Shown here piece after piece: positions 44,920 through 47,691 of a stretch of 64,000 nt of DNA; the stretch's first letter is position 1, and each line of letters starts with the position of its first letter. Source of the DNA: Thermoplasmata archaeon (GTDB lineage: Archaea > Thermoplasmatota > Thermoplasmata > GCA-020350865); NCBI GenBank assembly GCA_020348445.1, contig CP070751.1, positions 2,753,413 to 2,817,412 on the forward strand, read 5' to 3'. The translations under genes were made by a program, and so were the position numbers. A model generated the notes under the pieces. It had not been told where the DNA came from. It saw only the letters and a program-made list of their open reading frames with translations, and made no database searches.

Positions 44920-44941
44920 AAAAAGCGGGCCTGGCGGGATT
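44920..44941 (-). repeat. Copy of the tRNA-Lys 3' end (att-like), distal
   Basis: AAAAAGCGGGCCTGGCGGGATT, identical to 47335-47356 (22 bp). Confidence 0.9.
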
Positions 44942-45009
44942 TGTTCCTCGGGTTTTTGGCTAAGATGAAATTTCAGACGCTAAGAAAGCTCAAGGCTTCT
45001 ACTTCCATT

Positions 45010-45100
45010 TATACCTGCAAAAAACAGGTATAGCAAGGATTTTGCGCCGAAAGTAATAAAAAGCATGAACTCCTTATACTACCTGTTAAAAACAGGTATT
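45010..45100. promoter_or_regulatory. Two TACCTG-N7-CAGGTA inverted repeats flanking a BRE/TATA-like element
   Basis: IR1 TATACCTG-CAAAAAA-CAGGTATA at 45010-45032; IR2 core TACCTG-TTAAAAA-CAGGTA at 45080-45098; CCGAAAGTAATAAAAA between them. Confidence 0.75.
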
Positions 45101-45111
45101 ACATTCATATT

Positions 45112-45936
45112 ATGCCGAGTGTGTCCCACATGAAGAAGATTGATATGGTATACGCGGAGATCATGAAAAGACAGGTTGTGAATACTGATGACTTAGATGA
45201 AATCATGTTCTCTGTATTCGGGAAACCTCTTCAATACAAGTATTTTTATAATCAATATCTATCAAAACTTGTTAAAGAAAATAAATTGGTAAGGATTCGC
45301 AGGGGATTATATCACGGTATCGATATCTATTCCACAAGAAAATCAAAACCTGATAAATACCTGATCAGCGCGAAGCTCAGGAAACATTATTATTTGGGTT
45401 ATCATACTGCCCTTGAATTGCATGGATGTGCTTATTCAGATTTCAATCGATGCTATATTGTTACAACCCCTAATTCGAAATTTGAACCTTTTTACTACGA
45501 TAACCTGAATTTTCAAAAAGTTTTCACTCGGGATATTGAAAGTTTTATTGAAACAATAAAATATTCGGGACAAAGCATCTGTGTCTCCAATCCATCAAGA
45601 ACATTTGTTGAATGCATAAATAGACCTGAGTTTTGCGGAGGATGGGAGGAGGTTTTAAAGAGCCTAGATTCTCTCGGTAACGTAAAAATCCATGAAGTGC
45701 AAAAGATCCTTAAAATATATGATAAGCAGATCCTTTATCGAAAATGCGGATATGTACTTGACATCATGATAAAAAATTCTCCATATTATAAACATATTGA
45801 GAAACAAAAAGGGCTACATCCAATTGGGAAAAGCGCTCCAGATTTGTTTATTAAGAAGAACAATAGAGGTAAATATATTCCAAAATGGAAACTGTTTGCC
45901 CCATTCGATTTTGCTGAGCTGATAAGAGAGGTGTGA
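45112..45936 (+). CDS. abiEi: Type IV toxin-antitoxin antitoxin, AbiEi family
   Basis: N-terminal wHTH with LVRIRRGLY, YYLGYHTALELHG, SNPSRTFVECINRPEFCGG; 4-nt overlap with the toxin. Confidence 0.8.
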   Translation: MPSVSHMKKIDMVYAEIMKRQVVNTDDLDEIMFSVFGKPLQYKYFYNQYLSKLVKENKLVRIRRGLYHGIDIYSTRKSKPDKYLISAKLRKHYYLGYHTALELHGCAYSDFNRCYIVTTPNSKFEPFYYDNLNFQKVFTRDIESFIETIKYSGQSICVSNPSRTFVECINRPEFCGGWEEVLKSLDSLGNVKIHEVQKILKIYDKQILYRKCGYVLDIMIKNSPYYKHIEKQKGLHPIGKSAPDLFIKKNNRGKYIPKWKLFAPFDFAELIREV

Positions 45937-46844
45937 ACTTGGATCTCTCATTGTATCAGGATACCATTTCAGAAAAAATCGAGAGAATATGTGATATTTT
46001 GATTCAAACGAATAAAATAAGTACTCTTAGGGATCATTTGAGTTTTTATGGCGGGACGGCATTGAATTTTCTCTATCTGAACGTTCCCAGATTGTCTGAA
46101 GATTTGGATTTTAATTATAGACAGGTCAATTCACAGGACTGGGGGGAGGTCAGGAATGACATCGACATAGAAACCAAAAGGATCTTATATGATCTTGGAT
46201 ACCATCGAGAAAGTATTAAAATTCAGCCTATGTATAACCTGTGCAGATTTTATATAGAATATATAAATTCTAAGAACCTAAAAGATCTCATTAAGATTGA
46301 GACAGGATATATGCGAAGAATTCCCATTCTAAAAAACGACACGTTTAAAGAATTCATCCATCCTGTAACCGGACAGCATATTGATATAAAAACACCACAG
46401 AAAGAAGAGTTATTCGCAAATAAGTTCTGCACGATGTTCTCAAGAGAAAGCATGAGTGTAAGGGATATTTTTGATGTCTACAACATATCTAAAGCTGAGT
46501 TCGAATTTTCCTTGTTTTGTGATGTTGTAATGATCGAATCAATATTCATGAATATAGATATCATGAATTTTTCGTTGACCTCATTGGATGAGAAAATGCA
46601 AATGGATCGAATCCAGGATTTTGTGGCAGGGGAAATCGATTGGACAGCCATCAACGAGGGAGTCAAATCATTTGTCATGAGGATCCAAGCTGAATTAAAG
46701 GTCCGTGACCATCCAAAATTGATCAGGGAATTTCATAAGTCCAAAACAATTAATATTGATCAGATCATTAACAAGAGTAAATTAAATGATGGGATACAAG
46801 AGCATCCGATATTGTTGTGGATAATTGAGGAAATCTCAAAATAA
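45933..46844 (+). CDS. abiEii: Type IV toxin, AbiEii/AbiGii nucleotidyltransferase family
   Basis: FYGGTAL..RLSEDLDF, IKIE, ELFANK..R..RDIFDVY. Confidence 0.85.
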   Translation: MNLDLSLYQDTISEKIERICDILIQTNKISTLRDHLSFYGGTALNFLYLNVPRLSEDLDFNYRQVNSQDWGEVRNDIDIETKRILYDLGYHRESIKIQPMYNLCRFYIEYINSKNLKDLIKIETGYMRRIPILKNDTFKEFIHPVTGQHIDIKTPQKEELFANKFCTMFSRESMSVRDIFDVYNISKAEFEFSLFCDVVMIESIFMNIDIMNFSLTSLDEKMQMDRIQDFVAGEIDWTAINEGVKSFVMRIQAELKVRDHPKLIREFHKSKTINIDQIINKSKLNDGIQEHPILLWIIEEISK

Positions 46845-46869
46845 GAATTTATACCAGATAGGTGAAATA

Positions 46870-46885
46870 CGGGCCTGGCGGGATT
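46870..46885 (-). repeat. Copy of the tRNA-Lys 3' end (att-like), proximal
   Basis: CGGGCCTGGCGGGATT, identical to 47341-47356. Confidence 0.9.
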
Positions 46886-46955
46886 TGTATCTCAAGGACC
46901 CAGAACAAATGAGAATTCGAGCATTAAAATCCGGATGTATCCTTTTTTCTTATTT

Positions 46956-47240
46956 TTATTTGCAGAATACTTTCTCTTCAAATTTATATTTTGCAAGAAA
47001 CCGCCAAACAATCAACCAAAAGGGAATAATAAGAAAGATACCTCCCAAAAGCAAGATTGGCCATGCAACCGACAATGTATGTATAGGCCAGATAAATCTA
47101 TCTAATAATCCAAAGTGAATAAAGAGGAATAAAAGTAAAGCAATAAACCCAGTGAATATTACAAGCAGGATAAACATCAACAGTATCAAACGTGCAATCT
47201 CTCTTCCATGAATTGTTTCCATATTTGAAATGAGACCCAT
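46956..47240 (-). CDS. Small two-TM membrane protein; sole gene of a 471-bp cassette
   Basis: GAGGG SD, two hydrophobic helices; lies between the tRNA 3' end and the proximal repeat. Confidence 0.6.
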   Translation of the reverse strand: MGLISNMETIHGREIARLILLMFILLVIFTGFIALLLFLFIHFGLLDRFIWPIHTLSVAWPILLLGGIFLIIPFWLIVWRFLAKYKFEEKVFCK

Positions 47241-47340
47241 AATATCCCTCTATATCTAATCAATACATCTCAACTATAAAGTTTTTTTCATGAAATAGGG
47301 AAAAAAGACGATATATTACCTTGTCGAGATAGATAAAAAG

Positions 47341-47494
47341 CGGGCCTGGCGGGATTCGAACCCGTGACCGATCGGTGTCCCTGTGGCCAATGCCCCAACA
47401 ACGAAGTTAGGCTGGAATTCACGCCAGGTTTCTTTGTCAGAACAAAGAAACGCACATAAGAGCCGATCGCTCTACCTAGCTGAGCTACAGGCCC
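47341..47494 (-). tRNA. tRNA-Lys(CTT) with an 80-nt intron at 37/38 (intron 47377-47456)
   Basis: Acceptor GGGCCTG/CAGGCCC, D arm GCTC/GAGC, anticodon stem ATCGG/CCGAT with loop CT-CTT-A|A, T loop TTCGAAT, discriminator G, no encoded CCA; complete BHB motif at the splice sites. Confidence 0.95.
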
Positions 47495-47657
47495 AAGCGG
47501 ATGTAAACCCTGTAGCGAAGCTATAAAGTGGCGGAAGCAAAGCGAACGCCACGGGTATAGCTGAGCTACAGGCCCAAATTGATGTATTGCGAATGGAGCT
47601 CAGCTATTTAGTGGTGTAAGCGAAGCGAGCACCACGAACATGCTGAGCTACAGGCCC
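47495..47657 (-). repeat. Two tandem 81/82-nt hairpin units, each starting with a copy of the tRNA 5' end
   Basis: 47558-47575 matches tRNA nt 1-18; 47642-47657 matches nt 1-16; shared covarying inner stem-loop and TACATC end motif. Confidence 0.9.
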
Positions 47658-47682
47658 CTTGCTCCGTCGTAATGGAATGAGA

Positions 47683-47691
47683 TTTAATAAA
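47683..47691 (-). promoter_or_regulatory. TATA-box candidate for the hairpin-hairpin-tRNA transcript
   Basis: TTTATTAAA on the minus strand 26-34 nt upstream of the outermost tRNA-5' copy; no comparable motif between it and the tRNA. Confidence 0.55.

Follow-up and report, generated by a model that had tools for sequence, protein, structure and literature searches.

Small hairpin insertions at tRNA gene ends in one genus of Thermoplasmata: an apparently undescribed DNA family

Many tRNA genes of an uncultured Thermoplasmata archaeon, and of its close relatives, carry short hairpin units at their ends. The units make up a family of small DNA insertions that is restricted to one genus and has apparently not been described. 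Mobile DNA classically targets tRNA genes, and in archaea these genes are interrupted by introns unusually often; tRNA genes that bear introns are numerous in the genome under study (G000; 5.16 Mb in one contig, 41.5% G+C). In the reading that we prefer, and to which we give slightly less than an even chance, the units are a non-autonomous DNA foldback insertion that would duplicate the leader together with the 5' portion of the gene it enters, expand and contract by unequal recombination, and be transcribed as a leader removed by RNase P. This reading is favoured because the units are restricted to tRNA genes and to one genus, share core subfamilies between loci, occur as empty and filled alleles, and show a strand bias that is described below.

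The array ahead of tRNA-Lys(CUU)

The units were recognised in a 64-kb stretch of G000 (the window, meaning this whole stretch at its full length), where two of them lie on the minus strand ahead of tRNA-Lys(CUU). The window holds exactly three copies of the 16-mer GGGCCTGTAGCTCAGC (47642-47657, 47560-47575 and 47479-47494, minus strand), and shuffled sequences are expected to hold none. The copies follow one another at 81-82-nt steps, and the third is the start of the tRNA-Lys(CUU) gene itself. An inner hairpin pattern, GTGGYG followed by a 13-nt loop and CRCCAC, has two matches in the window (47611-47635 and 47528-47552) and again none expected in shuffles. With X standing for the first 16-18 nt of a tRNA and X' for an antisense (inverted) copy of X, each unit consists of X, a CGTGG...CCACT hairpin, X' and a leader-like spacer of 14-21 nt that holds TACATC.

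Unit A (82 nt; 47576-47657, minus strand) comprises X at 47642-47657, the core hairpin at 47611-47635, X' (GCTGAGCT) at 47597-47604 and the spacer at 47576-47596. Unit B (81 nt; 47495-47575, minus strand) comprises X at 47558-47575, identical to the tRNA over 18 nt, the core hairpin at 47528-47552, X' at 47509-47525 and the spacer at 47495-47508. X' measures 17 nt in unit B and 8 nt in unit A, and unit A, with its shortened outer arm, is considered the more decayed of the two. Predicted folding energies are -27.2 kcal/mol for unit A (z -3.97) and -33.4 kcal/mol for unit B (z -5.13), which none of 200 shuffles equalled. A preliminary description of this DNA had proposed an array of two tRNA-5'-primed hairpin units upstream of tRNA-Lys, and the three exact 16-mers, the two hairpins and the folds that beat shuffles show that array to be real. 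Its sizes for the two units on the minus-strand reading were upheld, as were a compensatory T-A/C-G change in the inner stem, a conserved 13-nt loop (10 of 13 bases common to A and B), the position of TACATC at -11 to -6 of the next copy, and the antisense relationship of the 3' arms to the 5' arms.

Downstream of unit B, the whole tRNA gene is present (Rfam positions 1-71), and its mature sequence is uninterrupted by the units. It occupies 47341-47494 on the minus strand, with exon 1 at 47457-47494, a canonical intron of 80 nt at 47377-47456 and exon 2 at 47341-47376; it matches Rfam RF00005 with 48.2 bits, and ARAGORN run with -i gives the anticodon ctt and the intron as i(39,80). In its default mode, ARAGORN called no tRNA in the window and missed tRNA-Lys(CUU). 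Stubs and long introns of this kind defeat default tRNA finders, and the tRNA sets of such genomes are therefore under-called or mis-called. A TATA-like box, TTTATTAAAT (47682-47691, minus strand), lies 34 nt before unit A and is the candidate native promoter of tRNA-Lys. It had been put forward as the only TATA candidate, which was incorrect: the octamers TAAATAGC and TTTATAGC, situated 35 and 33 nt ahead of the next copy and within the 3' arms, are also TATA-like.

Short tandem repeats can be mis-assembled, and the preliminary description had named an assembly artefact as grounds for refuting the array. There is practically no chance that reads of a single tRNA gene were wrongly assembled into the array. 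Units A and B differ at 16 of 67 aligned hairpin positions, and orthologous arrays with conserved flanks occur in the independent assemblies of three related genomes and in one metagenome contig. The core of unit A is nearest to the single unit of one relative (G001), and unit B is orthologous to the second unit of another (G002).

A family at tRNA gene ends within one genus

In G000, copies of a gene's own 5' end lie upstream of approximately 17 tRNA genes, in approximately 30 units, and copies of the 3' end lie downstream of about as many tRNA genes. Most 5' units have the order X, hairpin, X' and spacer, with an invariant foot (C-GTGG...CCAC-T) and a variable tip; those of the Leu and Pro type are longer, and their hairpins are variants. 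The inserts measure a uniform 65-110 nt and carry the conserved hairpin together with an inverted copy of the target. The break point within the tRNA differs by tRNA, from nt 11 to nt 33, which argues against a strict site and against a site-specific recombinase. For example, the tRNA-Glu(UUC) gene of G001 also has a 5' unit, and its tRNA copy reaches to about nt 33. A subfamily of 13-nt loops is common to the upstream cores of Lys and Glu, and the 5' end found in the units ahead of the tRNA at 4,127,488 in the genome is that of a different Ser tRNA. Derivation of the core from the tRNA's own 3' end was considered and rejected, the 3' ends of Lys, Ser and Thr being unlike their cores.

A covariance model, R1, was built on 25 cores with the invariant CGTGG/CCACT and was limited to the core, as the arms, which differ by tRNA, defeat MAFFT. 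Beyond the invariant 4 bp, the stem covaries among the 25 cores, with 26 cells changed on both sides and a score that none of 500 shuffles reached. The genome searches scored part of the candidates, and some stretches of the relatives were masked, so that the following counts are lower bounds. In its own genome, R1 gave at least 15 matches, 14 of 15 at tRNA genes rather than scattered intergenically; the only match away from a tRNA gene (G000 3,739,889-3,739,920, minus strand; CCTCCGTGGTCTCGCTTCGCTCGCCCACTTAG) has the loop of the Lys/Glu subfamily. Across 60 relatives, R1 was convincing only within the genus, with at least 11, 3 and 3 matches in G000, G001 and G002, respectively. Elsewhere among the 60, it found three single weak matches, none at a tRNA 5' end. 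The congeners include CP070739.1 (Methanomassiliicoccales archaeon) and an uncultured Thermoplasmata archaeon. Pattern scans of whole collections returned, from genomes, only the two known relatives and bacterial chance matches, and from metagenomes, one further contig. A covariance search, which had been suggested for the units, has in this core-only form brought to light homologues at tRNA genes across the genome as well as in congeners. An Rfam search of both strands up to E = 10 yielded nothing beyond the tRNA itself, and no description of such units was found in the literature searched; to that extent, the earlier remark that no named feature matches them holds.

Stubs of a related kind were seen in two bacterial-looking metagenome contigs, L088 and L089, each with a truncated tRNA 5'-end copy of approximately 24 nt that precedes a tRNA gene by about 100 nt. 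In L088, the tRNA that follows is a full one with the same 5' end; in L089, it has a different 5' end. These stubs are without the CGTGG...CCACT hairpin, and 5'-end stubs therefore exist outside the lineage too.

Unit number varies between species, in a comparison whose relatives are few and not independent. For tRNA-Lys(CUU), it is zero in G003, one in G001, two in G000 and three in G002; for tRNA-Thr(UGU), one in G001 versus two in G000; and for tRNA-Ala(UGC), two versus three in the same genomes. At tRNA-Phe(GAA), G001 and G003 have empty sites, one unit is present in each of G000 and G004, and two are present in G002. Such a comparison of unit numbers had been envisaged between strains and was carried out here between species. 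The tRNA-Lys(CUU) gene without upstream units is the only one found in G003, and its contig (C20) ends inside the gene. When filled and empty tRNA-Phe sites are compared, the repeated part is seen to comprise the native leader hairpin, a leader stretch of approximately 40 nt and 21 nt of the tRNA, and only the core, approximately 22 nt, is new sequence; it is absent both from the tRNA and from the empty sites. The tRNA-Phe unit in G000 is an exact 63-nt repeat. At tRNA-Lys, the spacers look like old leader copies because they are more alike one another and the native leader of a relative's contig (L092) than they are the local leader.

The preliminary description had offered two inferences, the first being a family of elements that insert at about tRNA nt 16-18 with a target duplication that rebuilds the tRNA. 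As an outline, this fits best, since the units are genome-wide, tRNA-specific and variable in copy number and have empty counterparts at tRNA-Phe. Its details required revision: the break point is not fixed, the duplicated block takes in the leader, and at tRNA-Phe nothing but the small core is new.

Several of these features would also be expected if the arrays were products of passive replication errors, that is, of template switching at tRNA genes, which are highly transcribed, and then of unequal crossing-over and palindrome correction, with no dedicated element or enzyme involved. Tandem inversion duplications have a direct-inverted-direct arrangement of segments that arises from template switching during replication, and the X, X', X layout of the units is the signature of such triplications. 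Tandem expansion, the exact repeat at tRNA-Phe in G000 and the variable break points point in the same direction, and the pair changes in the stems are all double changes or mismatches, as DNA palindromes predict. However, the junction in the units is a shared and conserved hairpin that is not parental tRNA, and its invariant CGTGG/CCACT foot recurs at more than ten different tRNA genes. Moreover, subfamilies are common to unrelated loci such as Lys and Glu, the module is found in one genus while errors would be expected in all, and it also occurs within a T-loop. We consider replication errors an unlikely explanation of the units.

The 3' end of tRNA-Lys has a history of its own. The 15-mer ATCCCGCCAGGCCCG, which runs from the end of the T-loop to the discriminator, is present in three exact copies where chance expects none. 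The first downstream repeat (46870-46884, minus strand) bounds a 456-bp insert (46885-47340) with a 94-aa hydrophobic ORF (46956-47240). The second (44926-44940, minus strand) is followed by a terminator-like CTTTTTT and bounds a 1.9-kb insert (44941-46869) that holds an AbiEi/AbiEii toxin-antitoxin pair (45112-46844; PF09407/PF13338 and PF08843). Such a terminator-like tail on the distal copy is what a displaced original end would be expected to retain. Similarly, tRNA-Val(GAC) (G000 1,266,000-1,270,300) has a 3'-end copy 3.9 kb downstream and a 3.8-kb insert with a MacB/FtsX-type ABC transporter pair. No integrase was found within the 456-bp and 1.9-kb inserts at tRNA-Lys or the 3.8-kb insert at tRNA-Val. 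The tRNA-Lys locus is an insertion hot spot.

Direct repeats of tRNA ends are a classic mark of integration (PMC9897764), and with two att-like 3' repeats bounding inserts at tRNA-Lys and a large insert bounded alike at tRNA-Val, the 5' stubs might be scars of the same process, each an attL remaining from a virus or plasmid which a tyrosine integrase had placed in the 5' half of the gene and which was later deleted to approximately 65 nt. This is quite improbable. The whole genome holds no 5'-end copy kilobases from its own gene, only other tRNA genes and their units that share a 5' end, and no large element is bounded by X. Random deletion would not yield uniform remnants of 65-110 nt, each with a conserved hairpin and an inverted target, and the units are kept across species. 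The nearest published case is a 5' fragment of tRNA-Thr in Caldiarchaeum, situated 1.8 kb upstream, with a recombinase-bearing insert and a rebuilt gene (PMC3293823).

A co-occurring HUH/TnpA transposase or integrase had been suggested for the units, and no transposase or integrase proved to be tied to them, which counts against the foldback reading. There are no ORFs within the units and no integrase among the neighbouring ORFs, and no RAYT-like gene flanked by units was found. The genome has five matches to Y1 (IS200/IS605) transposases. The analysis covered two of them, in a delimited and duplicated IS200/IS605 copy whose terminal hairpins are unrelated to the units, and that copy was discarded as their mobiliser on this ground.

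Pairing, transcription and the folded strand

Outside X, unit B and its orthologue in G002 are identical at 48 of 50 positions. In the same comparison of the Lys loci of G000 and G002, identity is 100% in the exons, 64% in the intron, 56% in the 60 nt upstream and in the spacer, and 53% in the 60 nt downstream. Across six Lys units, 93.6% of cells are paired, and three pairs are doubly changed: one position has CG, UA or AU, its neighbour has GC replaced by AU, and the outer stem of G001 has AU replaced by GC. A pair-keeping change on one side alone, such as G-C to G-U, was not seen in the six. X is identical to the tRNA in seven of seven Lys units. In G001, a TATA-like octamer has become TCCATAGC, with a compensating change in X, and the pair is retained; the octamer being lost and the pair kept, it is therefore pairing, not a unit-borne promoter, that is retained. 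To judge from these alignments, the hairpin is held at the level of pairing. The near-exon conservation of an orthologous unit between species is odd for a selfish relic and speaks against the foldback reading; it could mean that the units have a host function.

A leader can be complementary to its own tRNA without a unit, as at tRNA-Phe: a variant of GTTACCGC, which is antisense to tRNA nt 4-11, is present in each of the five leaders, those of both empty sites included, and reads GTACCGC in G004's upstream leader. The proposal that native leaders generally pair with their own tRNA was rejected: among the tRNAs examined, such complementarity is found in those that bear units, the empty Phe leaders apart.

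The array behind tRNA-Lys's candidate promoter is probably transcribed. Ahead of the first 5' copy, G001, G002 and G003 share a conserved block, GATACRTTTATYTAA, that is a putative promoter. Over 1443 nt of core-type units, T never occurs four or more times in a row, and 31 of 47 tRNA genes have a T-run of at least four within 30 nt downstream; the lack of runs of five or more T is not significant alone, given that 27% of shuffles likewise have none. An RNase P RNA is encoded in the genome (184.8 bits). As the units are free of terminator-like T-runs and the only conserved promoter lies ahead of them, the array is most likely transcribed as a leader, which would be approximately 170 nt long, structured and removed by RNase P. 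A promoter in each unit was ruled out as a general rule, since the octamers are not a regular feature of other arrays and one was lost in G001 with its pairing kept.

Which strand of the hairpin matters was examined by folding both. The antisense strand is the more stable in 17 of 21 5' units with RNA parameters and in 19 of 21 with DNA parameters; among intronless tRNAs of the genome, by comparison, the sense strand is the more stable in 30 of 35. The 3' units have no clear strand bias (14 of 24 and 17 of 24). The asymmetry comes mainly from pyrimidine mismatches and loops on the sense strand (U-C, UC/UC, CCC/UU) and may reflect composition. A bias that is the reverse of that in real tRNAs argues against a selected sense RNA, and the strand result is moderate evidence to that effect. 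It suggests that the hairpin matters as folded DNA, as a substrate for recombination or replication, and not as sense RNA.

These results bear directly on the possibility that the units are selected as sense RNA, either as cis-acting leader hairpins that would help a pre-tRNA with a long intron to fold or to be processed by RNase P, or as released RNAs of approximately 80 nt whose antisense arms would act on tRNA 5' parts or on the tRNA sequences of integrating elements. Such a role would account for a hairpin that is 96% conserved next to neutral neighbours at 53-64%, for the compensatory changes and for an X that matches the tRNA in every Lys unit, and a transcribed leader is what a lone conserved promoter, missing T-runs and an RNase P RNA would fit. 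Against it stand the reversed strand bias and the want of any one-sided change, such as G-C to G-U, that leaves a pair intact. Furthermore, copy number ranges from zero to three between species, tRNA-Phe works without a unit in two of them, and tRNAs free of units have leaders without complementarity to their own 5' end. Rfam gave nothing on either strand, and the unit folds hold no C box or other C/D motif and have internal loops too small for an H/ACA pocket. Selection for sense RNA is thus doubtful in our view. The second inference of the preliminary description, a co-transcribed array processed into small anti-tRNA RNAs, fares accordingly: co-transcription is plausible, and the selected sense RNA is disfavoured by the better folding of the antisense strand in 17 to 19 of 21 units.

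Under the preferred foldback reading, a hairpin module and an inverted copy of the tRNA's first bases would be placed in the D-arm region of the gene, and the leader and first 16-18 nt would be repeated behind the module. This would leave an intact gene downstream and an orphan 5' stub behind the native promoter. The arrays would then grow or shrink by unequal recombination between the direct 5' copies, and the array behind the native promoter would be transcribed into the structured leader and removed by RNase P. Each stub may pair early with its own antisense arm, which would then be unavailable to the true tRNA 5' end. If, by analogy with attC and CTX, a recombinase acted on folded single strands, this would account for the target copy being inverted, for the invariance of the foot and for the mismatches that are conserved. 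Alternatively, the units may spread between tRNA genes with the assistance of homology, the D-arm and T-loop break points coinciding with the two most conserved sequence blocks of tRNAs.

The units mix traits of att repeats, of REP and MITE palindromes and of bulge-helix-bulge (BHB) introns, yet miss a defining feature of each. Elements that integrate into tRNA genes leave partial genes behind as att repeats, among them tandem accretions and integrase-less remnants that can be mobilised in cis. Like these repeats, the units present a direct repeat from a loop to the gene terminus, rebuild an intact gene, form tandem series and differ from one relative to the next. Three exact 16-nt 5' copies bound inserts of approximately 65 nt beside an intact tRNA-Lys, and the 3' end of the same gene holds true examples of att repeats. 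The units differ, however, in being non-coding, uniform and only about 65 nt long, in carrying an inverted target copy and a hairpin, and in breaking anywhere from nt 11 to nt 33, and no integrase-bearing parent was found. REP, BIME and REPIN sequences and MITEs are small palindromic repeats mobilised in trans, for example, by RAYT Y1 transposases. Like these, the units are short imperfect palindromes, present in dozens, whose foot is invariant and whose tip varies; they are lineage-restricted, clustered and kept in place across species. Unlike them, the units occur only at tRNA gene ends, with outer arms tailored to each host tRNA.

Two further systems offer an analogy only. In CTX-phage attP, the duplex of a hairpin imitates the target on the chromosome, and integration gives rise to tandem arrays with both inverted and direct target copies. 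The units resemble this attP and integron attC sites in their structure-defined imperfect hairpin, short invariant foot, conserved mismatches or extrahelical bases, and strand asymmetry; they differ in having no cargo and in a strand bias that is modest and absent from the 3' units.

A possible link to tRNA introns

The tRNA-Glu(UUC) gene at about 668 kb in G000 (668.2-668.5 kb, minus strand) contains a 49-nt insert in its T-loop that begins with the core module. When the precursor is folded without constraint, the T-stem, a helix of 4-5 bp and the intron helix are separated by bulges of 3 nt on one strand and 2-3 nt on the other, a predicted structure that is essentially a BHB. In G001, the T-arm of tRNA-Glu(UUC) is intact, and a homologous module (94% over 62 nt) lies approximately 120 nt downstream as the second 3' flanking unit; the insert is missing from G002 and G004. 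By this homology, one module is a flanking unit in G001 and an intron-like insert in G000. A near copy of it occurs in the 3' unit behind tRNA-SeC. A second tRNA-Glu(UUC) exists in G000, and the interrupted copy could therefore be dispensable. This second gene is located, together with a Lys-like tRNA, in a 3-kb array of approximately 20 tightly packed tRNA genes (4,640,570-4,643,566) that has no flanking units and may be of mobile or viral origin.

Other genes of the genus are interrupted at comparable positions. In G003, tRNA-Lys(CUU) has a 36-nt D-loop insert right after nt 18, the exact point at which the units lose homology to the tRNA, and in sequence this insert is unlike the units. In G002, G003 and G004, the tRNA-Lys(UUU) genes apparently have three intervening sequences each, in the D-arm, the anticodon loop and the T-loop, and non-canonical splicing therefore appears normal in the genus. 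The intervening sequence in the T-loop ends in CTCGAAAT, which resembles the inner hairpin of the 3' units. "Intron transposition" at non-canonical tRNA positions has been proposed in Thermoproteales (reviewed in PMC4090602).

It is tempting to suggest that the foldback units and the D-loop and T-loop BHB introns are two states of one mobile hairpin module, although we hold this to be somewhat doubtful. Interchange between unit and intron would come about through a small deletion or duplication between the repeated copies of tRNA ends. The likeness to BHB introns (PMC4090602) consists of the core module inside the T-loop of tRNA-Glu(UUC) and of the D-arm and T-loop introns of tRNA-Lys(UUU). 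The Lys units differ from such introns in standing upstream of an intact gene, not within it, and their borders, drawn by hand and from MFE folds, form no BHB, with 3x2 and 2x2 loops instead of staggered 3-nt bulges across 4 bp. The notion that the units are themselves introns spliced from the first stub was rejected, as no BHB could be drawn for it.

Taken as a whole, the family consists of miniature insertions without genes of their own; the gene entered is rebuilt, and the arms are fitted to each host tRNA. The route by which archaea gain tRNA introns was still called open in a 2026 preprint (10.64898/2026.10.13.758758). If the link between units and introns is true, it would supply a concrete route to such gain at the level of DNA, and the closely related filled, empty and intron-bearing alleles of this genus would make the mechanism of tRNA intron gain and gene fragmentation a workable problem.
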